This document shows positions 11,301-53,105 of a stretch of DNA of 64,000 bases, in pieces; positions within the stretch are counted from its first letter, which is position 1; each line of letters starts with the position of its first letter. A program made the position numbers and the translations under genes. Source of the DNA: an uncultured delta proteobacterium (GTDB taxonomy: Bacteria; Myxococcota; Myxococcia; Myxococcales; Myxococcaceae). The stretch lies in contig CAVYSY010000056.1 of assembly GCA_963771175.1 (NCBI GenBank), positions 116,960 to 180,959 of the forward strand, written 5' to 3'. The notes under the pieces were generated by a model. The model was given only the letters and a program-made list of their open reading frames with translations, was not told where the DNA came from and did not search any database.

Positions 11301-12417
11301 TCTCGTGGAAGGCCAGCACCACCTCGTCCACGTCCTCGGCATCGAGCGGCGCGGCTCCCTCGGTGAGCCCCGTGAGCACGAACGCCACCAGCGTCAACTG
11401 ATGGCGCTGGGAGGTCCGAGGGGCCTCGCATCCAGGCTGGAGCCGCACCCTCAGCTCGTGCAGCTCCGAGCGCAGCTCCAGCGCCGTGCGGAAGCGCCGG
11501 GCCGGGTCCTTGGCCAGCGCGGTGGTCAGCAGCGCCTCCACCTCCTGGGGCACCTCGGGCCGGCGCGCGCGCACCGAAGGCACGGGCTCGTCGGAGGTGA
11601 CCCACGCGCGCAGCTCGTCAAAGGGAGCGCTCGGGTGGGGCATCCTCCCGGTGAGCAGCTCGTGGAGCACGACTCCGACGGCCCAGATGTCGGTGCGCGC
11701 GTCCTGGGGCTCACCCCGCCACTGCTCCGGCGCCATGTAGGCCGGCGTCCCCGCGGTGGGCAGCTCCGGTCTGTAGCCACTGCAGGCGGGCGAGAAGTTC
11801 GACAGGCCGAAGTCGAGCAGCTTCACCGTCCCCTGCTGGGTGAGGAAGACATTGCCGGGCTTGAGGTCCCGGTGCACGAGGTGACGCTCGTGCGCGTGCG
11901 CCAGGCCCGCGGCGATGCCCTCGAGGATCTCCAACGCGCGCTCGACGTCTGGCGGCCCCCGCTTCAGCAGCGCGGCGAGCGACTCGCCCTCCAGGCACTC
12001 CATCACCAGGACGGGGATGCCCGGCTCTCCGGGAGCGTCCTGCCACTCGGACACGTCGAAGATGCGGACGATGTTCTCGTGGTCCAGCAGGGCCACCGCC
12101 CGCGCCTCGCACAACCCCGACTGCTCGAAGCCCTTGTCGAGCAGGAGGAACTTGAGCGCCACCTCGCGGGCCAGCACCTCGTCGCGCGCGCGGAACACCT
12201 GCCCCATCCCCCCACCGCCCATCCAGCCGAGCACGGTGTACCGATGACCGTCCGAGCCTCCGAGCCGCTCTCCGGGAAGAGGGAGCTGGGGGGCTGATTC
12301 GAGCTGAAGCATCTCCTTCAGGAACGAGTCTCCGGACTCTCCTTCCTCGAAGAAGGAGAGGCCCCGGCTCGTGGATGGGCCCCCGTGCTCGTATGCCCTG
12401 GAGACATCCTTGCTCAT
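8326..12417 (-). CDS. Ser/Thr kinase + class III cyclase-like + STAND (AAA) ATPase + TPR protein
   Basis: [75 protein letters not shown]; helical C-terminus. Confidence 0.92.
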   Translation of the reverse strand: MSKDVSRAYEHGGPSTSRGLSFFEEGESGDSFLKEMLQLESAPQLPLPGERLGGSDGHRYTVLGWMGGGGMGQVFRARDEVLAREVALKFLLLDKGFEQSGLCEARAVALLDHENIVRIFDVSEWQDAPGEPGIPVLVMECLEGESLAALLKRGPPDVERALEILEGIAAGLAHAHERHLVHRDLKPGNVFLTQQGTVKLLDFGLSNFSPACSGYRPELPTAGTPAYMAPEQWRGEPQDARTDIWAVGVVLHELLTGRMPHPSAPFDELRAWVTSDEPVPSVRARRPEVPQEVEALLTTALAKDPARRFRTALELRSELHELRVRLQPGCEAPRTSQRHQLTLVAFVLTGLTEGAAPLDAEDVDEVVLAFHETSAELIGQHGGSVALSMGGEVLACFGCPQGREDDSERAVRAGLQLTRELRDTLQRKLPHLPLSGLVVRAGIHTDWVTVRAQALGSRGGGRLAVQGEAPRVAEWLARQAGPGGVLLGETTWQLVRGAFLTASLGSRVFEGLSGSLRLEAHGVLGERRVTSRFDQSLVTGRLLPLVGRESELAQLLEPWERAWRGQGSFVLVSGEAGIGKSRLIEELCERVAPESALLLRVQCWSRFSTHALHPAIALLQDVARFSPEDSPHQRLRKLEERLGELGLSTEDTHLMGQLLSLPVPEDSPVHHLTPERRKERIFEALARILLHRHCCEAPVLLVVEDLHWVDSLELEFLGFLLERIEKERLLVVLSSRPELQPDWPRHPWFHRLALERLPAGLAAMLVKEVAQGRELPDETVQRLVSRTDGIPLFIEEMTRMVLEGGAEASIPVTLHELLLARLDLLPSRQRALAQLCAVVGRDFPRALIAALMDLEDDVLGRELAGLVDAGLLQAEPCADKGPGYQFRHALIQDAAYQSLSRSTRRQHHRHIARVLEEHFPHLVKKKPEMLAHHYTEAGEVEPAIRYRFRAGQLANQRMAYREALNHLTLALKLLPGLPDAERRLREELQLLMALGVPLAYQHGYGSPEMERLCSRIRELFIQVGEELPRTELCFVSLQVHAFVGAEFQRTLELGGLLVDMGERQHSQELLSMGHRMMTSSLVSYGQMRAAAEHAERVLASLPLELEQLRRLATRQGLEPRSATLAFASVIYSVLGQVDKARRYGREAVEWIERIVHPQTLGLVLFYTAMSCRIRGELGEALERVERSIELSREQGNGMLRAYAGLIQGWCLSGLGRPREGLVLIRRGIDDWRSLGFRSMLPFQGYLLAESLLTLGRVREGLAVVHEALAGVDATGERDSEVELHHLHGELLWADGRAHEAKPHFLLALALARQRGLGLVELRVTESLSRLLRELEQPEEARALLEALQASGPGLAPRLSSAEP

Positions 12418-12525
12418 CGCCGCGCTCCCCTCTTCCGGCCGGGCTCCTGCATGGGCCGGTCCCCTCCTCGGAAGACGGAGTGGCCTCCCTTGGATGTGAC
12501 GAGGAGGCGCGCCTGGAAGCCCTCC

Positions 12526-15500
12526 TCACTCCAACTCGCGCCCGGAAGGAGAGGGAGCATCCCAGGGCCCGAGCTCCTTCAGCAGGGCCCGTGCCTCGCG
12601 GAAGTCGAGCGAGTCGGAGCCCTCGTCGAGCCGCCCCAGGGCGAGCACCAGCAGCGGCCCGGCCTCCTCCGCCCTCCCCTCGTCCCGCATCAGCCGGCAC
12701 AGGCTCACCGTCGCGCGCAGCTCGAAGAGGCCCGCTCCCTGCCGCGAGGCGACCTCGATGGCGCGCACGAACCGGGCCTTCGCCTTGCGCTCCTGCCCCC
12801 TGGCCCGCAGCAGCTCCCCGTCCAGGCGCAGCAGCTCGGCCTCGTAGACGCGCTCGCCCGTGGCCTTCATCTCCGCCAGCGCCTGGCACGTCGCGTCCAG
12901 CCCCTCCCAGATGCGGCCCAGCTTCAGATGGAGCTCCGCGAGCATGCTGTAGCCGTGCGGCACCCCGGCCCGGATGCCCCGCTCCGCGCGGCCGCGCAGC
13001 TCCTCGCGGACGAGCGAGAGGCCCTCGGAGTGCCGCCCCAGCTCGGACAGGGCCCACCCCCGGACCATCGTGGACCACGAGCTCCACAGCCAGTAGCTGC
13101 GCTCGCCCGAGAGCGCGAGCGCCTGGTCCGCCCACCGCAGGGCCTCTCCCGGCTCACGGCGGACCTGACAGGCCACGGCCGCGTACGTGAGCGCGTAGGC
13201 CGTGGTGTGGGCATGGCCGATGCGCCCGGCCAGCTCCAGGGCGCTCCGGCCGCAGCTCCGCGCCTCGCCGAGGTGCCCCTCCACCGAGTGGATGACACCG
13301 GCGAGGCCCAGCGCCGTCGCCTTCGGGTCGGTCCAGTGCAGCGAGGCCAGTCCGCGGTGCTGCTCCAGCTCGAAGCGCGCGCAGACCACGGCGCGGTCCA
13401 CATCCGCCACCGCCTCCCGGATGTGGCCCCAGAGGAAGTGGGCGGTGCCCGTCATCCGGTACCCCACGGCGAGCAGCGTCCGGTCCTGCCGGCGCTCGCC
13501 CACGTCCACCAGCAGCCGGGCCAGCTCGTGGAACGGGCCGAGCTCCGCCCGCGCGTAGTGGTAGGCGAAGGGCCCCCACAGGGAGAGCTCTATCTCCGGC
13601 AGCGCCTCGCCCATCTGGAGGAAGAGCTCCCGGGCCCGGCCATACGTGCGCCGCACCTCGGGCGAGCGGAAGCCCTGCACGTGCGACAGGGGGAGGCCCA
13701 GGGCCAGGAGAATCCGCAGCTCCTCGCGGGCGTGCTGGCGCGCATCCGGCAATCCCCTCAGCAGCTTCAACGCCCGGGTGAGGTGCTCCACCGCCTCCCG
13801 GCTGGCCAGCCGCTGGTTGGCGAGCTGCCCGGCCCGGAACCAGTAGCCCACGGCCGCCGCGTACGCCCCCGCCTCGGTGAAGTGGCGCGCGAGCACCTCG
13901 GGCTTCGCTTCGGCCAGGGCGGGGAAGCGCTCCACCAGGACCCGGGCGATGTGCCGGTGGTACTGCCGCCGCGTGCCGCGCGACAGGGACTGGCTGGCCA
14001 CCTCCTGGATGAGCGCGTGCTGGAACTGGTAGGCGGGCTCTCCCGCCTCGCGCTGCTCCTGGAAGAAGCCCGCCTCCACCAGGCCGTCCAGGTCCCTGCC
14101 CAGGGCGGCCTCGTCGCGCCCGGTGAGCGCCACCACCAGGGCCCGCGTGAAGTCTCGCCCCACCATCGCGCAGAGCTGCGCCAGGGCCCGCTGCCGCGAC
14201 GGGAGCCGATCCAACCTCGCCAGCAGCAGCTCGCGCAGGGTGACGGGGATGGAGCCCGGCATCAGCTCGGTGAGAGAGCCGGCCTCGTGCTCCAGCAGCA
14301 TGCGCGTCATCTCCCCGATGAAGAGGGGAATCCCATCCGTGCGCCGCACCAGGTTGCGCACCGTCTCCTCGGAGAGCTCCCGTCCCCGGGCGACCTCGCG
14401 CACGAGCACCGCGGCCTGCTCCGCCGGGAGCCGCTCCAGCGTCAGCCGATGGAGCCAGGAGCGCCGGGGCCAGGACGGGGGCACCTCGGTGCGCGTGCTG
14501 AGGAGCACGAGGATGCGGGCCCGCTCGACGCGCTCCAGCAGGAGGCGGAGGAACTCCAGCTCGGTGGAGTCGGCCCAGTGCAGGTCCTCCACGACGGCGA
14601 GCACCGGGCGCTCCCGGGCCAGGCGCGGCACCAGGTCCACCATCGCCCGGAGGGCCAGCTCCTTGCGCCGCTCGGGGGTGAGCAGGCGCACCGGGGAGTC
14701 CTCGTCGAGGGGCAGCCCCATCGGCGGGCGGAGGAGCTGCGCCTGCTCCTCGGAGAGCCCCATTCCCTCCATCCGCTCCAGCAGCGCCTGATAGAGCTCG
14801 CGCGGGGAGCGGCCCGGGGGCAGCCGGAACAGGTCCTGGAGGAGCTGGAGGAAGGGGTGGAGGGCGGTGGTGCTGAAGCGGGACCAGCACTGGAAGCGCA
14901 CCCGGATGGAGGACTCCGGGGGGACGCGCGCGTACAGCTCCTGGATGAGGCGGGACTTGCCAATGCCCGCCTCGCCGCAGACGAGAAGGAACGCGCCCTG
15001 CCCCCGGAGGGCCTGCGCCCACAGCTCCTCGAGCCGCCGCAGCTCGCGCTCGCGCCCCACCAGCGGCAGGAGTCCCTCGGTGGCGAGTGCCCGCTCGAAG
15101 CGCACGGTGGCCTCGCGCTCGCGCAGCACGAGGTGGACGTCCAGGCGCCAGCTGCCCGACAGGCCCTCGAACTCGCGCTGCCCGAGCACCTCCGTCTCGA
15201 AGGCGCCGCGCACCATGTGCCACGTGGCATCCCCGAGCACCACCTGCCCCGGCGCGGCCTGCCGCGCGAGCCACGCGGCCACCTGGGGAGCCTCGCCCTG
15301 GATGACGAGCCCCCCGCCCCGAGGCCCCGGCGCGCGCTCGTCCAGGGCCACGGTGTCCGAGTGGATGCCCACCTTCACCGCCACGCCGGAGAGGGACAGG
15401 TGCGGCATGCGGCGCTGGAGGGCCTCGGGGAAGTCCCGGGCCAGCCGCAGCCCCGCGCGCACCGCGCGCTCCGAGTCGTCCTCGCGCACCTGGGGGAAGC

Positions 15501-16716
15501 CGAAGCACGCCAGCACCTCGCCGGCCAGGGACAGGGGCACGGTGCCGCCGTGCTGCTCGATGACCTCGGCGCACGTCTCGTGGAAGGCCAGCTCCAGCTC
15601 GCCCTGGTCCTCCACGTCGAGCGGCCCTCCGAGCCGGCCGAGCCCCGTGAGCAGGCACGACACCAGCGTCACCTGCCGGCGCTGGGACGCGGCGGCGGGC
15701 CGGCGTCGCTCGAGAGCCGGACCGAAGAGGCGCCCGCGCACCTCGCGCAGCTCCTCGCGCAGCTCCAGCGCCGTGCGGAAGCGCCGGGCCGGGTCCTTGT
15801 CCAGCGCGGTGGCCAGCAGCGCATCCAGCTCCCGAGGCACCTCGGGCCGGCGCGCGCGCACCGTGGGCATGGGCTCCTGGGACGTCACCCACTCGCGGAG
15901 CTGCGCGAAGGTGGCCTTGGGCCAGGGCACCGTCCCGACGAGCATCTCGTAGAGGACGACGCCCGCCGCCCAGATGTCGGTGCGCGCGTCCTGGGGCTCG
16001 CCCCGCCACTGCTCCGGCGCCATGTAGGCCGGCGTCCCCGCGGTGGGCAGGTGCGGCGCGGCCGTGGCGCTGGTGAAGTGGGACAGGCCGAAGTCCAGCA
16101 GCTTCACCGTGCCTTCCCGGGTGAGGAAGACGTTGCGCGGCTTGAGGTCGCGGTGGATGACGTGGCGCTCGTGCGCGTGCGCCAGGCCCGCGGCGATGCC
16201 GTCCAGGATGTCCAGGGCCCCGCGCACGTCCAGGCGCTCGCGCTTCAGCCGCGCGGCGAGCGACTCCCCCTCCAGACACTCCATCACCAGGAAGGGAATG
16301 CCCGGCCCCCCGGGCGTGGCGCGCCACTCGGACTCGTCGAAGACGCGGACGATGTTCAGGTGGTCCAACTGAGCGATGGCGCGCGCCTCCCGCAGGGCTT
16401 CCTCCACGCAGCCCACCCGGGGCAGGAGGAACTTGAGCGCCACCTCGCGGTGCAGCACCTCGTCCCAGGCGCGGAAGACCTGCGCCATGGCCCCGCTGCC
16501 CATGGGGGCGACAATCCTGTACCGGAGGCCCTCTTGCCCGCCCAGTCGCTCTCCAGCCATGGGCAGGCGGGGCAGGCTCTCGGGCTGGAGCACCTCCTTC
16601 AGGAACTCATCCCCGAAATCCGAGCTCTCGGAGCCACCCGCGCCGCTGGAACCACCCGAGGGGGGGCTCCCCTGCTCGGCTCCCTGCTCGCCCTGGTCCT
16701 CGCCGTCCCCGCTCAT
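12526..16716 (-). CDS. Ser/Thr kinase + class III cyclase-like + STAND (AAA) ATPase + TPR protein (paralog)
   Basis: Same motif series and order as 8326-12417. Confidence 0.92.
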
Positions 16717-16851
16717 CGCGTGCCCCCGAACCTCTCCCTCGGCTCATGTCTTCGGGAAAGGAGCGAGTTTCCCTGGAAGCTATGAACGGAGCGCGTGACG
16801 GACCAATCGGGCCGCCGGACGAGAGAGGGCCGGAGCCCGTGCACTCCGCCC

Positions 16852-45803: not shown

Positions 45804-47174
<1,371 letters not shown>

Positions 47175-47185
<11 letters not shown>

Positions 47186-49324
47186 GTCGCTCCTCGTTCG
47201 GCGCCGACGGCCGTGGCGGGCCACCACAGCGTCACGCACGTGCCCTGGCCGGGCGCGCTCTCCAGCTCGACGCGGCCGCCGTGGTTGCGGACAATCTGCG
47301 CCACCATCGTCAGCCCCAGCCCCGTGCCCTGGCCGCGCTTCTTCGTGGTGAAGAAGGGGTCGAACACGCGGTTGAGGCTCTCGGCGGAATGCCGCACCCG
47401 TCGTCCCGCACCGTCACCCGCACGCCGCTCCAGGCCCCCGGCTCGCCCGGCGCCTCCGGTGCGCGGCGCAGGCGCACCGTGCCCCCGGGCTCGCACGCGT
47501 CGCAGGCGTTGAGCGCCAGGTTGACCAGCACCTGCTGCAGCTGGTCCGGGTCCGCCGGCGAGCGCGGGCAGCCCCTCGGGCACGCTCCACCTCCAGCCGT
47601 CACCTTGCGCCGCTCGGCCTCCAGCCGTGCAGCAGCTCCTGCACGCCGCGCAGCAGCGGCCCCAGCGCCACGCCGCGCACCGCCGCCGGCTGCACCCGCG
47701 AGAAGTCCAGCAGCTGGCGGATGGTGCGGCTCACCCGGTCTATCTGCTCGATGATGACGCTGCACGCCCGGCGGCCTGCGGGTGCTGCGCGCCCAGCTTG
47801 CCCAGCACGTACTCGGCCCGGCCGCGCACCACGCCCAGCGGCGTGCCGATCTCGTGGGCGATGCCCGCGGCGAGCATGCCCACCGTGGCCAGCTTCTCGG
47901 CGCGCAGGAGCTGCGACTCGAGCGCGTGCACGTTGCTCAGGTCCTCCACCACGAGCAGCACGCGCACCTCGGGGTCCGTGGCGCTCCAGCGGCACGGCGT
48001 GGATGCGGTACTGGCCCTCCTCGCCGAAGAGGGCGCAGCGGCTCGCCGTGCAGGCTGAGGACGCGCTCGGCGTGGCACGCGCGCCTCCACCAGCGCGCCG
48101 AGCCGCGCCACCACCGGCGGCGGGGGCGTGCGGGAAGGCCTCCGGCAGCGAGCGCGCCCACGGCGGTCGGGGGCAGCCGCTCGCGCAGGGCCTGGTTGAC
48201 GGCGCGTGATGCGGCCGTCCGCCGACGAGCGCGAGGACGCCGGTGGGGATGTTGTCGAGGATCTTCTGCGTCTTCTCGTGCAGGTGCGCGAGCCGGTCCG
48301 CGTGCCGGCGGCTCTCCTGCAGCGCCACCGCGCGGCGCGAGGCGATGATGCACGTACACGCCGAAGGCGCCGAGGAAGAAGGTCACCAGCAGCGCGCCGA
48401 GCGCCACCCGGAGGATGACGGCCCCGCTCGTGGCTGCGCAGCCTCGGTGGTGGAGAGCAGCGTGGCCACGGCCCAGTGGGTGCCGCCGCGCACGCGGATG
48501 GGGGTGAAGGCGGCGATGGCGTCCGCCGCGCCCAGGCCCAGCCGCGCCGCCTCGTCCTCGCCGAGATGCGGACCGTGCCGCGCTCGCCCGCGCGCATGCG
48601 CCGCGCCAGCTCCGCGAAGGCCGGGAGTCTGCCCGCCTCGCGTGTCCAGCCGCTGGTACCAGTCCACGAGCGCCGGCGTCGCTCGCGGGGGTGGGCACGC
48701 CGTGCGCGCCGAGCAGCAGCAGCCGCGTCTCCGGGCTCGGCTGGTCATCGAGCTGCAGCGGGGCGAAGAAGGGCTCGGTGTCCACCAGCACCGCCACCGC
48801 GCCGCCCGGGCCCGCCTCGGCGGGCGCGTAGCGCGGTGGCGAAGACGCGCAGCCAGCCGCCCGGGCGCGGCGGCCACGGGCGGCGAGGTGAGGATGTCGC
48901 CCGGGGTCCGGGCGAGCGCCGCGCGCGCCGCCTCCGCCAGGACGGTGCCCACGGCGCCGCGCGTGACGGCCGGGCCCGCGCGCCGGTCCATGATGGCGAA
49001 GCCGCTGCGCCCCCGTCCTGCGTCGAGCACGATGATGGCCTTGTACTGCCCCACCACCTCCAGGAGGGCGAGCAGCTCGCGCCGGTGCTCGGTGACGGAG
49101 CCGGGCCGGGACAGCAGCTCGCCGGCGAAGCGCAGGTCATCGGCCGCGTCGTCGAGCGCATCGGCCACCTCGCGCGCCGCCGCCTCCACCTGGGCCTGCC
49201 GATCCGCGGAGAACTGGTCCACCAGCGCCGCGCGGTCCCTGCGGATGAGATAGACGACGCCCGCCACCACGCTCACGAGCGCGATGCACAACAGGAGCAC
49301 GGAGGCGACGGCCTTGCGGTTCAT
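47175..49324 (-). CDS. Membrane sensor histidine kinase (PAS, NtrB-like); frameshifted
   Basis: N-terminal TM segment, [41 protein letters not shown]. Confidence 0.85.
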
Positions 49325-49518
49325 GGTCGGGCGGGGGCGGGGCAGTGTAACCCGCGCCTCCCGACCCAGCGGGAATGGTTTCAGGCGCCCGACCCAAACC
49401 GGCCGCCCGACAGGCGGACACACGCGCTGGGTGACATCGCCGGGTCGATGTCTCGGCGCCGTGCCATGTCAGACCCAATGAGTCTCATGAGGCACTCCGA
49501 ACGTGACAGGAGATGCCC

Positions 49519-50676
49519 ATGCCCTTGTGGAAGTCTTCGCTTGCGGTGTTGCTGATCGCCGCCCTTGCCGGCTGTGGCTCGGCGGATGAGTCCGTGCGTC
49601 CCGATGCCCCCTCGACCGGGGTGTACGAAGTCGAGGCGGACGCCTCCCCCGAGGACCTCTACTTCGAGCTGGTGCGCCTGAACTCGGCCGGATTGCTGGA
49701 ACCGGGGCGCATGGACGCCATCCACCGCGCCCTGGACGAGTTGGATGAGAAGTACGAGGAAGGTACCGAGTCGCACCACGAGCAGATGCGCGTCGCCCTT
49801 GCCTCCGCCCTCCGCCGCGCGCTGCGCGACATGCGCCGGGGCGACGATGCAGCCGTGGCGGAGGCCCAGTACGAGGGTCGCGCCTATGCCGGGAAGCTGA
49901 ACCGGGCCGGAGTGCGCGAGGCGGAGCGCCATGCCGAGAACACCCTCCTCATCGCCGGCATGATGGGCGTGCCCACCAGCGAGGGAGACATGGTCCTCAT
50001 GGTGGCCATTCCTGTGGGCGGCTACCTCGTCGTCCGTGTCACGGGCGTGGCCTTCAAGCGGTTGCCGCTGCTCTTGCGGAAGCTGCGCTCGGCCGATGAT
50101 GTTTCCGAGGAAGCTGTGAAGAGGGGCTTTCGCTGGGGCTACGCCTCCAACCCGGAGGAGATGCGCGCCCTGGGGGGCGAGCTGGCGGCCCGGATAGCGG
50201 ACAACCCTCTGCCACATGTAGGTGCGGCAGATATACCACGAAGGGGGAAGCTCAATCGGTGGAATCCTTCCGGGCGAAAAGACAACTGTACTGCATGCGT
50301 GGCGGCGGTCATCCGGAACAGCATTGATGGCTACTTCAATCACTCGGCGGACGAGATGGAGCGACTCTTCGGCCACGCTGGCCGTGAGCGGCGCTTCCGG
50401 CCCGAGGACTCCCTGCGCTACATTGAGAAGGCGACCGGTCTCCGGGCTAGCAGGGCTGGTGTTGCCATCCTCGAACCGACCGCCCCCGTGGGGCATTATG
50501 CCATTTTCACGCGGTGGAACGGTGCCACCTATGAGCATGTCGTCTACGGGCGGGTCACGCCTACTGGACGGGTTGTTGTCTTCGACCCGCAGAACATGAA
50601 GCGCATGACCTATCAGGAAATGTTGAAAGAATATGGCAGAAGGGCAAAACCCCACTTGCTAGAGGAATCTCCATGA
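49519..50676 (+). CDS. Lipoprotein with a C-terminal papain-fold toxin domain (Tox-PL / Gln-deamidase-like)
   Basis: Lipobox LAGC. C-terminal NP....DNCTAC..A, EHVV and VFDPQ give a Cys-His-Asp triad. Confidence 0.75.
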   Translation: MPLWKSSLAVLLIAALAGCGSADESVRPDAPSTGVYEVEADASPEDLYFELVRLNSAGLLEPGRMDAIHRALDELDEKYEEGTESHHEQMRVALASALRRALRDMRRGDDAAVAEAQYEGRAYAGKLNRAGVREAERHAENTLLIAGMMGVPTSEGDMVLMVAIPVGGYLVVRVTGVAFKRLPLLLRKLRSADDVSEEAVKRGFRWGYASNPEEMRALGGELAARIADNPLPHVGAADIPRRGKLNRWNPSGRKDNCTACVAAVIRNSIDGYFNHSADEMERLFGHAGRERRFRPEDSLRYIEKATGLRASRAGVAILEPTAPVGHYAIFTRWNGATYEHVVYGRVTPTGRVVVFDPQNMKRMTYQEMLKEYGRRAKPHLLEESP

Positions 50677-51128
50677 GTGAAGAGATGTATTGTTGTGAGT
50701 TCTGTGGCTACGGCAGCTCAAGCAAGGAGCGTTGCACCCGCTGCGGAAGTGACATCGCTCACTGCTTCAACGAAGAGACCAATGGCATGCACGGAGTCAT
50801 GCTCCCAGCCTGGGGAAGAATAACGGTTCGCCTCCTCGAACCTTCGCACGCGGATGTTATCTGGAAAGAAGTGGGAGAGGTATGGGACTGGCTGGAGCAG
50901 CATACCGAGCATCAGTTCCTTCTCGGCCAGATGGAGAAGTTCAAGACCCAGGCAGCCTCCGTGGAACTCCATGGCTCGGAGTTCGGTGCTCGCAAGATCA
51001 AGGAGGTCCTGCAGGGCCGCGGGAGCATCGAATTCGAGGAACTGCCAGACGACCAAATCCCCCACCGCCCCATTCCTCCGCGTCCCGCCCACTGGCGCGA
51101 GCCCTACGTCCCTCGCAGGAAGCGCTGA
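50673..51128 (+). CDS. Zn-ribbon protein, candidate cognate immunity protein
   Basis: CEFC...CTRC. ATGA overlap with the toxin stop, no signal peptide. Confidence 0.65.
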   Translation: MSEEMYCCEFCGYGSSSKERCTRCGSDIAHCFNEETNGMHGVMLPAWGRITVRLLEPSHADVIWKEVGEVWDWLEQHTEHQFLLGQMEKFKTQAASVELHGSEFGARKIKEVLQGRGSIEFEELPDDQIPHRPIPPRPAHWREPYVPRRKR

Positions 51129-51146: not shown

Positions 51147-52142
51147 ATGCGCCGCCCTCGCCACCTGCTCCTACCGGGCCTCCTGCTGTCGCTGCTGGCC
51201 CTGGCCCACTGCCGCAAGCCCGAGCCAGAAAAGCCAGCTGCCGTGGATTGCGGGGAGGATTTCAACTGCATCCTCGAGCGCGCCCCGGGCTGCCAGCCCG
51301 CCTCGGCCCTGCTCCGCCAGCAATACACCGTCGAGGGCAAGCCTCTGCAGGTGCTGGCCCGCTACGAGGTCGTAGGCCGGGTACGCGGCCGATGCCACGT
51401 TCGCCGCACCCAGATCGACCCGCCTCCTCCGCCGCCCACGCCTGATGCAGGCGCTGAGGAGGAGCCGTATGAAGAATACGAATACCTCTGGAAGAAACCC
51501 GTTCCCGTCCCCATCTTCGGGCCACGCCCGCGGGAGATGCTGCCGCCGCAGATGCAGTGCCTCTATCCCGAGGACAGGGTGATGGAGGCGCTCTGGCGCG
51601 CCCAGCACGATAGGTCCACTCAACCAGAGCTCGACCCGTGCTACCCGGGTGATGGGAGCTGTGCTCAGACTCCCATTCCCGTGCTGGCGCCAGGGTGTGT
51701 CCTGGAAGACTGCCTGCTGGGTCGGTGGACCTTCACTTGTGAAAGCATGAATGGCTCGCCGAGAAGAACCACCATTCACTCCTGCGAGGGCACGCGCCTG
51801 TCGGACGAGAACCCAGGCTGTGCCCTGCTCTGCAAGCATGGCAAGCACGAGCTCAGTTGCCGTGGTCCGCTCGGTCCTGCGCCGGGCTGGGAGCCCATCA
51901 TTCTCATGGCACGCGACGAGTTGGCGCGGCTTCCTCCGGAAAAACAGGAGGAGCTCAAGAAGCGAGAGGCGGAGCTGATCCAGAAGCGGGAGGATTATCG
52001 CCTAGGCAGGAAGCGGGAGCGCTCCTTCAAGCTGGAGGATCTGCCTCCGGAGATGCAGGCACGCATCAAGGCGCTGGACGCGGAAATAGCCCGTGAGGAG
52101 AGGGAGGCGGCGCAAAAGCACAAGGCCCAGGAGCATCGCTGA
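51147..52142 (+). CDS. Cys-rich lipoprotein with a charged helical tail
   Basis: Lipobox LAHC, more than 10 Cys, C-terminal LPPE.Q repeats. Confidence 0.7.
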   Translation: MRRPRHLLLPGLLLSLLALAHCRKPEPEKPAAVDCGEDFNCILERAPGCQPASALLRQQYTVEGKPLQVLARYEVVGRVRGRCHVRRTQIDPPPPPPTPDAGAEEEPYEEYEYLWKKPVPVPIFGPRPREMLPPQMQCLYPEDRVMEALWRAQHDRSTQPELDPCYPGDGSCAQTPIPVLAPGCVLEDCLLGRWTFTCESMNGSPRRTTIHSCEGTRLSDENPGCALLCKHGKHELSCRGPLGPAPGWEPIILMARDELARLPPEKQEELKKREAELIQKREDYRLGRKRERSFKLEDLPPEMQARIKALDAEIAREEREAAQKHKAQEHR

Positions 52143-52234: not shown

Positions 52235-52642
52235 CTACGTCGCGGCCGGGTGGCAACTCACGCCCAGCGGCAGGCCCACCGAGGCGAGCGCCACCAACTC
52301 CTCCGGAGTGAGCTCGAAGTTGCACTGCGTCTCATAGGCAACCACCAGGTACAGCGTGGCCTCGGTGGCACCCGCGGCCCGGAGGTCCGGCAGCGTCTCC
52401 TTCAGCGCCCGCAGCGGCTCCATCACCGAGGCCCCCGGCTCCAGGTCATCGTCGAGCAGCACCAGCATGGCGCTCCCGTACGGCAGGGGCTCGCCCTTGT
52501 ACCGCCCCGAGGGTGCCACGTCGCCGGGCTCGTTCTTGTCCACCAGGACGAGCCCCGAGCGCTCCTCGGCGAGCGAGGGAGAGAAGGAGTCCCCCTGGAG
52601 GAGGCAGTACAGGAAGCGCCGCGTGGAGAGCCGCTGACTCAT
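52235..52642 (-). CDS. DUF4279-like hypothetical protein
   Basis: FSPS....SG.......PG....GR; C-terminal FEL.PE.L..LA.VGL.LGVS. Confidence 0.5.
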   Translation of the reverse strand: MSQRLSTRRFLYCLLQGDSFSPSLAEERSGLVLVDKNEPGDVAPSGRYKGEPLPYGSAMLVLLDDDLEPGASVMEPLRALKETLPDLRAAGATEATLYLVVAYETQCNFELTPEELVALASVGLPLGVSCHPAAT

Positions 52643-52654
52643 GGGCGCCCTACC

Positions 52655-53032
52655 TCACCCCAGGTCCACCCGGAGCGCCAGACGCCGCTGCCCCGCCCTC
52701 GAGTGCACCCCCGAGCGCTGGGCCGCGGGCGGCCTCGAACGTCTCCCGCCGACAGAGGGCCTCGCCGCCGGAGCCGAGGCCTCGACGCACTCCGGACCCA
52801 GCAGGTCATCCAGGGAGCCGCTCAGCACCCGCTGCATCCGCCGCAACGTCGCGGCGCTCGGCACGGTGCTCGGGCTGCCTCGCTCGAAGCGGCCGTAGGC
52901 ATGCTCGGGCATGCCGATGCGCCGGGCCATCTCCGCCTGGGAGAGCTCCACGAGCTCCCGGACGATGCGGAGGGTCTTCCGAAGGGGTTGAGCCAATCGT
53001 TTCCGGACCTCGGGAGGCACATGACCTGGCAT
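52655..53032 (-). CDS. XRE-family helix-turn-helix regulator
   Basis: LSQAEMARRIGM....YGRFERG...PS..TL......SLDDLLG. Confidence 0.85.
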   Translation of the reverse strand: MPGHVPPEVRKRLAQPLRKTLRIVRELVELSQAEMARRIGMPEHAYGRFERGSPSTVPSAATLRRMQRVLSGSLDDLLGPECVEASAPAARPSVGGRRSRPPAAQRSGVHSRAGQRRLALRVDLG

Positions 53033-53105
53033 GGTGGCCACAACCCTAGCGACTCGTGACGTCAAGTCAACCCAGAACCCCATTTTACCGGTCATCCACC
53101 AGACC

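Follow-up and report, generated by a model that had tools for sequence, protein, structure and literature searches.

The window analyzed here (64,000 nt of contig CAVYSY010000056.1, assembly GCA_963771175.1, from an uncultured soil myxobacterium) carries three consecutive plus-strand genes, designated here as open reading frames (ORFs) A, B, and C, that are best explained as a modular lipoprotein toxin cassette of an Archangiaceae myxobacterium with a SitA-like mechanism, an explanation that we consider likely. Judged from its sequence and those of its relatives, ORF A is a modular polymorphic toxin: behind a lipoprotein signal it joins an N-terminal module (the “N-module”) to a C-terminal papain-fold domain (the “CT”). 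ORF B is likely the cytoplasmic immunity protein for the CT, and we hold with considerable assurance that A and B form a toxin-immunity pair; ORF C, a cysteine-rich lipoprotein, is an accessory candidate. Two parts of this picture are directly supported by the comparison of sequences: N-module and CT recombine independently in nature, and ORF B travels with the enzyme domain whatever the carrier. Every feature listed in the preliminary description is present in the sequence, and its interpretation stood wherever the analysis could check it; conserved homologues of both A and B and the conservation of the motif residues speak against a chance resemblance. The cassette would extend a known kind of kin-warfare system and does not appear to found a new one.

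Exchange of modules in ORF A

A word-seeded search returned 45 homologues of ORF A, of which 40 share its C-terminus and align over 80% or more of its length; those with names come from Vitiosangium, Cystobacter fuscus, Archangium, and Melittangium (Archangiaceae) and are all annotated as “hypothetical.” This collinearity seemed to indicate conservation over the full length without swapping, the very result that the preliminary description of the locus had named as fatal to its idea of a swapped-in warhead, but an exhaustive phmmer search of 1.8 billion representative sequences overturned that impression, yielding 115 matches that cover either residues ~5–220 or residues ~230–384. In the 168 proteins collected, the N-module is found in 81, the CT in 123, and both together in 48. 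Fifteen N-module proteins end in a non-papain tail ≥80 aa long, and BLAST groups these tails into nine clusters; the N-module is known, in other words, with at least nine other C-terminal tail types (at least 10 tail types in all), and one of these alternative tails (on P0066) is a PF00545 ribonuclease. The CT, for its part, lies at most 25 aa from the protein C-terminus in 107 of the 123 proteins that carry it, and a Pfam scan of 25 relatives found it behind RHS repeats (P0077, P0080, P0151, P0166, and weakly P0157) as well as behind the eCIS_core marker (P0098, P0143). The N-module also occurs outside lipoproteins: in P0072, an RHS protein of 3886 aa, as well as in P0158, it starts a few residues past a “DPxG” motif, which we take to be the motif that closes the Rhs core. 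A shared toxin domain, variable C-termini, and an adjacent gene for a candidate immunity protein, the features by which polymorphic toxins are recognized (Zhang et al., 2012), are all found here.

The nucleotide composition changes at the same boundary. The GC content of third codon positions (GC3) stays at 0.867 over residues 1–225 of ORF A (residue numbering counts from 49513), with this same value in each of three blocks of 75 codons, and falls to 0.667 and then 0.655 over residues 226–387; the step in codon usage is sharp, is located at ~50188 (residue 226), and coincides with the N-module/CT junction, in good agreement with the rise of A/T-ending codons from ~50200 that had been pointed out earlier (GC3 0.867 before the step, ~0.66 after it). 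ORF B (GC3 0.715) and ORF C (0.773) can be compared with 0.81–0.93 for the flanking genes, and total GC goes from ~0.70 to 0.53–0.57 across 50450–51050. The two halves of ORF A also have different relatives. Against P0002, the closest relative, 199 of 204 positions of the N-module are identical but only 125 of 162 positions of the CT. In our locus comparison (12 loci from species genomes, by tblastn; L001 to L012), the window N-module is closest, among eight intact loci, to that of L001 (76%), and the window CT is closest to that of L007 (74%), whose N-module is only 52% identical. Together with the at least nine other tails on the N-module and the RHS, eCIS-marker, and LysM carriers of the CT, the GC3 step upholds the original suggestion that the warhead has been swapped in.

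Both C. fuscus and Vitiosangium have two to three copies of the cassette per genome. Alternative cassettes in L010 (5845–7589) and L011 (5644–7609) have the same N-module followed by a tail of the form “...IFEPGA..L....I..LPEGF..P” and then by a conserved 124-aa gene beginning MKGPVTT; neither tail nor gene has a Pfam match, and the toxin reading frame of L011 is broken into two. Another protein, P0042 (from one ENA contig of 3645 nt), is a chimera: its N-terminus resembles that of the Cys-rich lipoprotein ORF C, and this is joined to the latter half of the N-module and the papain CT. Such a protein would arise by deletion if a C gene lay upstream of A, and L010 has the two genes in this order.

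The true start of ORF A is probably the second ATG, as the preliminary description had it, because the database copies (385 aa) begin MPLWK at this second Met; a Shine-Dalgarno-like site precedes it. The lipobox LAGC noted earlier is present, with its Cys at residue 21, and this Cys is kept in at least 90% of 22 aligned homologues. The sorting residues are Gly at +2 and Ser at +7 (no Lys at +2, no Ala at +7), in agreement with the outer-membrane sorting rule for lipoproteins as given for these two positions (PMC5562445), so that the N-terminal signal looked for in a SitA-type lipoprotein, a lipobox with outer-membrane sorting residues, is found in ORF A.

The domain that follows this signal had been called unrecognizable from the sequence, and the searches bear this out: the N-module matches no family in Pfam or NCBIfam, its best Foldseek match to the PDB has an E of 0.48 (none at E ≤ 0.001), and the protein Atlas holds nothing at ≥0.9. 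A search restricted to the N-module returned 36 relatives, all 36 unnamed or “hypothetical” and none from Myxococcus. In a 35-sequence alignment, the lipobox is followed by a variable stretch of ~20 aa, then by the conserved motifs “AS.EDLYFE.VRL.S.GLL” and “EGRAYARRL.RAGV” and the core motif “LIAGMLGVPTS.....LMVA.P.GGY.VVK,” and the module ends at about residue 215–225. The hydrophobic core (residues 145–175) is the best-conserved part of the family, with G152, P154, T155, L162, P167, G169, G170, and V173 invariant in 22 sequences. AlphaFold2 (AF2) modeled the N-module with a predicted local distance difference test (pLDDT) of 75.5, giving four confident helices that span residues 46–137, a low-confidence segment at residues 133–151, three short strands across the hydrophobic core, and finally a small alpha/beta part; the “helical middle with a hydrophobic stretch” of the preliminary description corresponds to these four helices and the Gly-rich stretch at 145–175.

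We regard the N-module as a candidate escort or cytoplasm-entry domain. As with the entry domains of CdiA-CT and Rhs-CT toxins, it can stand between the Rhs end motif and the toxin (P0072, P0158) and is paired with many unrelated tails. It differs from them in that it is joined here to a lipoprotein signal, and it has no sequence or fold similarity to the solved entry domains, the E of 0.48 being its best structural match.

ORF B and the papain-fold domain

ORF B begins with an ATG that overlaps the TGA of ORF A (ATGA) and encodes a protein of 151 aa with the two CxxC pairs C8xxC11 and C21xxC24, exactly as first described; to judge from its sequence it has no signal peptide, and a conserved middle region comes after an N-terminal zinc ribbon. 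In the locus comparison, ORF B lies downstream of the papain CT in all 10 loci that have this CT (L001–L009, L012) and is absent from both loci with the other tail (L010, L011), where the 124-aa gene is found instead. A tblastn search of plasmids gave one match, in the betaproteobacterium Eleftheria terrae, where the CT (43% identity, E 3e-16) makes up the last ~115 residues of a ~5100-aa LysM-annotated protein (15.3-kb gene); the next gene overlaps this toxin gene by 4 nt and encodes a 137-aa homologue of ORF B (BLASTP E 8e-9, 31 of 118 residues identical) with the same two CxxCG pairs. Because ORF B goes with the papain CT rather than with the N-module, in a betaproteobacterium as well, it is likely the immunity protein, which gives substance to the Zn-ribbon immunity candidate of the preliminary description; a cytoplasmic partner, in turn, implies a cytoplasmic target for the toxin.

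Further, ORF B is intact beside a broken toxin gene in three loci. In L002 (6697–7155) and in L008 (6661–7119), one premature in-frame stop ends the toxin gene ahead of the codons for the catalytic His and Asp; in L012 (5938–6760), the toxin gene has an internal deletion and runs out of frame into B. (A frameshift reading of L008 was ruled out, since translation gives the in-frame stop.) Compared with its homologue P0047, whose contig has the same length as that of P0002, ORF B is 60% identical overall and 41% over the middle 80 residues, a faster divergence than that of the ORF A N-module. We read the broken toxin genes, this divergence of B, and the differing relatives of N-module and CT as signs of conflict-type evolution. 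Mantel correlations were 0.76 between CT and B and 0.44 between N-module and B, for eight loci among which one near-identical pair dominates, and they carry little weight.

Homologue searches gave 10 matches for ORF B, and the protein has nothing credible in Pfam, nothing in NCBIfam or the PDB, and nothing at ≥0.9 in the protein Atlas. Nine of 16 family members have weak Zn_Ribbon matches in Pfam, and none of the 16 matches an Imm or SUKH model at E ≤ 1 (the Imm35 model presumably being part of Pfam). The family is likely an immunity family not yet described, in keeping with the earlier remark that it could not be recognized. Its myxobacterial members end in a conserved basic, Pro-rich tail (51034–51125 in the window; “EF.ELP..QIP.RP.....R.P.VPR.KR”), which the Eleftheria homologue lacks.

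The CT can confidently be assigned a papain fold on the strength of its model. From a 34-sequence alignment, AF2 predicted the domain with a pLDDT of 89.5 and a predicted template modeling score (pTM) of 0.82, placing Cys259 at the first turn of a helix, His342 at the opening of a strand, and Asp358 at the close of the next (the papain arrangement); residues 225–245, the linker, are of low confidence. All the residues that had been picked out in the sequence alone (NC..C, H, DPQ) are found, as N258-C259..C262, H342, and D358-P359-Q360. The Cys/His/Asp triad is kept in 103 of the 105 relatives that cover all three columns (123 aligned domains), and among aligned CT domains N258 is kept in 105 of 112 and Q360 in 109 of 116. 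Foldseek matched the model to papain-like cysteine peptidase toxins and C39 peptidases in the PDB with E values of 2e-4 to 5e-3 (TM-scores of the best matches ~0.41–0.57), including YopQ (8brf, E 2.3e-4), StbD-CT of Citrobacter rodentium (8ssm/8ssk, E 3e-4 to 2e-3; for 8ssm_A, E 3.1e-4 and TM 0.52/0.57), and Cpe1, from a “papain-like cysteine protease toxin/immunity pair” (9l5u_B, E 9.8e-4, TM 0.51/0.58). Other matches were the C39 peptidase domains of ComA, PCAT1, and LahT as well as staphopain, SpvD, and AvrPphB. As a sequence profile, the CT found only YopQ (E 0.046) and 9l5u_A (E 0.73) in the PDB, with 8ssm not listed, and a profile of the whole family gave chance-level matches only.

The sole Pfam match of ORF A is to PF15644, “Papain fold toxin 1, glutamine deamidase” (residues 258–361, E 0.014). 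It spans positions 2–112 of the 114-position profile and scores 16.9 bits when the whole protein is compared and 19.0 bits when the CT is taken by itself, below the cut-off of 24.1; P0151, at 28.0 bits, is the only one of 25 relatives scanned to exceed it. NCBIfam gave nothing for ORF A, and there was no match to Pfam C39 at E ≤ 1. The high-confidence model, its structural neighbors, and this sub-threshold but full-length profile match agree with the papain fold that the preliminary description had proposed. Because only four of 34 relatives reach E ≤ 0.01 against PF15644, we place the CT, from its sequence, as a divergent branch at the edge of the Tox-PL1 family. It shares with Tox-PL1/PF15644 the “NC, H, D” signature (Zhang et al., Table 2, PMC3482391) on a papain fold, the alignment over the full profile, and the position at the C-termini of polymorphic toxins, RHS proteins included (PMC3482391). 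It differs in scoring below the cut-off, in having a Zn-ribbon partner where the same source reports Imm35 and SUKH partners, and in its lipoprotein carrier, which is absent from the export routes listed for Tox-PL1 in that source.

The preliminary description had left the chemistry at “deamidase/peptidase.” The first half of this label is not favored over the second, since the structural neighbors are peptidases, and on the model peptidase chemistry is the somewhat better prediction; the name “deamidase” is attached to PF15644 because of OspI of Shigella, a deamidase that the family includes (PMC10318531). The two closest toxins suggest how such a peptidase might work. StbD-CT, in which an entry domain and a linker precede a C39 peptidase, is reported to cut itself under reducing conditions in the linker after Gly157-Gly158, 25 residues before Cys183, a cut that intoxication requires (bioRxiv 10.64898/2026.05.07.723447). 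Cpe1 attacks GyrB and ParE, cutting them at a double-glycine motif, and Cpi1 blocks it at an exosite (PMC12136450). Of the 95 CT relatives whose sequence extends far enough upstream of the catalytic Cys, 81 have an H[VI]G motif within the 45 residues before it, whichever carrier they are on, and the next residue is usually A, S, or T; the motif is mostly located 18–25 residues before the Cys (22–23 is commonest), and in ORF A it lies 22 residues before Cys259. By analogy with StbD-CT, H235-V-G-A238 is a candidate self-cleavage site.

StbD-CT and Cpe1 are the best toxin matches of the CT by Foldseek (E 3e-4 to 2e-3, TM 0.48–0.52) and have in common with it the Cys/His/Asp triad and an adjacent gene for a small cytoplasmic immunity protein (a candidate in our case); StbD-CT also shares the order of entry domain, linker, and peptidase, with 22 aa between linker motif and Cys here and 25 aa between self-cut and Cys there. 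On the other hand, the sequence similarity is marginal (9l5u_A, E 0.73) and there is no Pfam C39 match; the immunity proteins are unrelated; and the carriers of StbD-CT and Cpe1 are CdiA and a type VI secretion system (T6SS), whereas those of our CT are lipoproteins, Rhs, eCIS-marker, and LysM proteins.

ORF C and the genomic neighborhood

ORF C has no Pfam or NCBIfam match, and its 14 invariant cysteines fit a disulfide-bonded envelope protein. It is present in eight of the 12 loci, downstream in L002–L006, L011, and L012 and upstream in L010; it is missing downstream in L001, L007, and L008, and in L009 the contig ends too soon for a call either way. Because these eight include both loci with the other CT, ORF C appears from its distribution to go with the N-module and not with the CT. 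Its +2 residue is Lys in three of seven copies, Arg in the window copy, and Ser or Gly in the rest. The last ~75 aa of the window copy (51918–52139) form a Lys/Glu/Arg-rich tail that is absent in five of six other copies and short in L010. The coordinates of the cassette are collected in Table 1.

Table 1. Features of the toxin cassette, in window coordinates.
Feature	Position	Strand	Description and basis
ORF A, predicted lipoprotein polymorphic toxin	49513..50676	+	387 aa; 385 aa from probable start 49519; ORF list
AGGAG, Shine-Dalgarno-like site	49508..49512	+	6 nt 5' of ATG 49519; read from sequence
Type II signal peptide, lipobox LAGC	49513..49575	+	Cys21 = +1, then G-S-A-D-E-S
N-module, residues 36–225	49618..50187	+	Helical bundle, then Gly-rich hydrophobic core, then small alpha/beta part
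Hydrophobic Gly-rich core, residues 145–175, LLIAGMMGVPTSEGDMVLMVAIPVGGYLVVR	49945..50037	+	8 of the 13 invariant columns of a 22-sequence alignment
C-terminal toxin unit, residues 226–387	50188..50673	+	Predicted papain-fold Cys/His/Asp domain
H235-V-G-A238 linker motif	50215..50226	+	Candidate cis auto-processing site
Predicted catalytic-triad codons	Cys259 50287-50289; His342 50536-50538; Asp358 50584-50586	+	Motif and AF2
ORF B, 151-aa cytoplasmic Zn-ribbon protein	50673..51128	+	Candidate cognate immunity protein
ORF B C8xxC11 and C21xxC24	50694-50744	+	Zn-ribbon cysteines
ORF C, 331-aa lipoprotein	51147..52142	+	14 invariant cysteines past the lipobox; accessory candidate

Divergently oriented upstream of the cassette (46048–49423, minus strand) are the genes of a sigma-54-dependent, NtrC-like response regulator and a sensor kinase, and the Vitiosangium copy L001 has the same two-component pair upstream. 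Immediately past ORF C, on the opposite strand (52235–53095, minus), a 135-aa ORF without a family match is found next to a 146-aa XRE-type helix-turn-helix protein (PF01381, E 3e-8); their GC3 values (0.93 and 0.82) are native, and the two could be a small regulator or toxin-antitoxin-like pair. An NCBIfam scan of 20 neighboring ORFs identified ordinary chromosomal genes, with no SitA- or SitI-named model among the matches (and no positive control for models so named). Farther away (12385–16785, plus strand), a 1466-aa ORF with a GC3 of 0.78, compared with ~0.9 for its neighbors, has no Pfam or NCBIfam match. No promoter-like sites and only one terminator-like site, fewer than the shuffled expectation, were found, and a search of a phage collection gave no match.

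Delivery, relation to SitA toxins, and alternative explanations

In the mechanism that we propose, ORF A would receive its lipid at Cys21 and go to the outer membrane by lipoprotein sorting, and TraA/B outer-membrane exchange (OME) would then carry it to sibling or rival cells, as it does SitA; by analogy, we lean slightly toward this route of delivery. The N-module would move the toxin across the inner membrane, a role that we propose because it holds the same position in Rhs proteins as the entry domains do in CdiA-CT. Once in the reducing cytosol, the enzyme may free itself at H-V-G|A, 22 residues before Cys259, and the freed CT would inactivate a cytoplasmic protein, by proteolysis more likely than by deamidation. 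In the producer, ORF B would bind and block the CT, and ORF C, as a disulfide-rich envelope lipoprotein, would probably assist or control the handling of the toxin in the envelope.

The SitA proteins combine a family-specific escort domain (~375 aa) with an exchangeable toxin at the C-terminus, and SitI is encoded downstream; six families (SitA1/2, 3, 4, 5, 6, and 7) are described as delivered by TraA/B OME, and their escort domain, which sets the entry route, has been proposed to act as an entry domain (PMC8546572). They are outer-membrane lipoproteins whose loci sometimes include an upstream beta-barrel protein, SitB (PMC5562445), and those given a predicted function in PMC10433427 are all nucleases. 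The cassette shares with SitA/SitI an outer-membrane-type lipobox, a family-defining N-terminal domain with an exchangeable C-terminal toxin, a (candidate) immunity gene directly downstream, multiple copies per genome, an envelope protein as accessory at some loci, and host genera with traAB, alleles of which have been reported from Archangium, Cystobacter fuscus, and Melittangium (PMC6372800). The SitA-type combination of an exchangeable toxin and a downstream immunity gene is present, and the downstream gene (B or another) varies with the type of tail. The differences are an N-module of ~200 aa in place of the ~375-aa escort domain, a papain-fold warhead where SitA has nucleases, a Cys-rich lipoprotein (ORF C) downstream where SitA loci may have SitB upstream, and the occurrence of the N-module in Rhs proteins as well. 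A literature search for SitA8, SitA9, and SitAI8 turned up no relevant paper, and the cassette apparently represents an undescribed SitA-like family of lipoprotein polymorphic toxins, set apart from the six published families by their descriptions. The length of the N-module, its lack of an NCBIfam match, and its 36 unnamed or “hypothetical” relatives outside Myxococcus speak indirectly against membership in one of those six.

Several observations weigh against this interpretation. The N-module is much shorter than a SitA escort domain, and no relative comes from Myxococcus or bears the name SitA; AF2 renders its hydrophobic core as beta strands or at low confidence, with no clear membrane helix. 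The PF15644 match stays below the gathering cut-off, with only four of 34 CT relatives at E ≤ 0.01, and the linker motif is H[VI]G[AST] and not the Gly-Gly of StbD-CT. The co-divergence of CT and B rests on eight loci and is dominated by one close pair. As to mobility, there is no tRNA gene within the 64-kb window, the surroundings of the cassette have only short, chance-like repeat matches and no flanking repeats that would mark a mobile element, and the upstream flank is syntenic with Vitiosangium. Finally, 48 of the 81 N-module proteins have the same CT and 40 of the 45 near-length homologues are collinear, so that swapping would seem to be real yet infrequent.

One alternative concerns delivery. 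The same toxin-immunity pair might reach its targets without TraA/B, being surface-exposed, shed in vesicles, or passed on by some other contact route, with the N-module alone providing entry into the target cell (possibly against other species, in predation). The N-module does occur in Rhs proteins, and M. xanthus delivers its large Rhs proteins independently of both OME and T6SS (PMC10433427); none of the relatives carries a SitA annotation, and the published escort domains are longer than the module. We nevertheless consider this version unlikely, given that the lipobox and the +2/+7 residues match the OME-transferred class, that the carrier genera have traAB, and that architecture and operon layout are those of sitAI. 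A slightly better case can be made for a different chemistry, in which the CT would be an OspI-type glutamine deamidase or a transglutaminase-like modifier that changes a side chain of a key protein: the one Pfam match is to the glutamine deamidase family of OspI (PMC10318531), and the “invariant” Gln360 and Asn258 suit either activity. Set against this are the peptidases that head the list of structural neighbors (StbD-CT, Cpe1, ComA, PCAT1, LahT, staphopain), the absence of OspI (3B21) from the best 50 Foldseek matches listed, and a conserved linker motif at the distance of the StbD-CT self-cleavage site, and we rate the deamidase as the minority possibility.

The roles of the partner genes could also be read otherwise. 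ORF B might be a cytoplasmic chaperone, adaptor, or activator, with protection coming from ORF C or from an unlinked gene; its conserved basic Pro-rich tail, its lack of relationship to the Imm35 and SUKH proteins reported for Tox-PL1, and the envelope location of ORF C, which could block re-entry, all lend themselves to this idea. It is nonetheless quite improbable, for B accompanies the CT in two phyla, on lipoproteins and on a LysM giant, carriers that would need different export helpers, and is retained where the toxin gene is broken, whereas C tracks the N-module and is missing from three complete loci. Least probable of all, and hardly credible to us, is that no weapon is involved and that ORF A, as a lipoprotein peptidase, does housekeeping work in the envelope (processing the cell wall or lipoproteins, for example) with a zinc-ribbon protein as its regulator. 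A family with collinear members in most genomes of Archangiaceae, in ordinary chromosomal surroundings beside a two-component system, might look that way, but RHS, eCIS-marker, and giant LysM proteins have this same domain at their extreme C-terminus, the partner is cytoplasmic, the composition is atypical, and there are two to three paralogous copies per genome, some with premature stops.

Among these readings, the SitA-like toxin cassette with ORF B as its immunity gene remains the one that we prefer. Its boldest form would combine an N-module that is a delivery-independent entry device, a seventh and non-nuclease SitA-type family, a warhead that cleaves itself in cis in the reducing cytosol of the target cell and then destroys an essential protein, possibly a type II topoisomerase, and ORF C as a dedicated envelope partner of the module; that all of these should hold together is doubtful, and we put the combination forward tentatively. 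If it is true, the N-module would be mounted both on OME-passed lipoproteins and on giant surface Rhs proteins. The place of the N-module behind the Rhs cleavage motif is independent, comparative support for escort domains as cell-entry domains, and it links two of the three known myxobacterial kin-discrimination systems. The linker motif predicts a redox-triggered self-release of the enzyme, and with ORF B papain-fold toxins gain a candidate for a new immunity family, one whose conservation reaches from Myxococcota to Betaproteobacteria. Kin discrimination in myxobacteria is accounted for by the six SitA families. A protease-type family of lipoprotein toxins would widen both the “barcode” repertoire by which these bacteria discriminate kin and the range of targets that their toxins reach.

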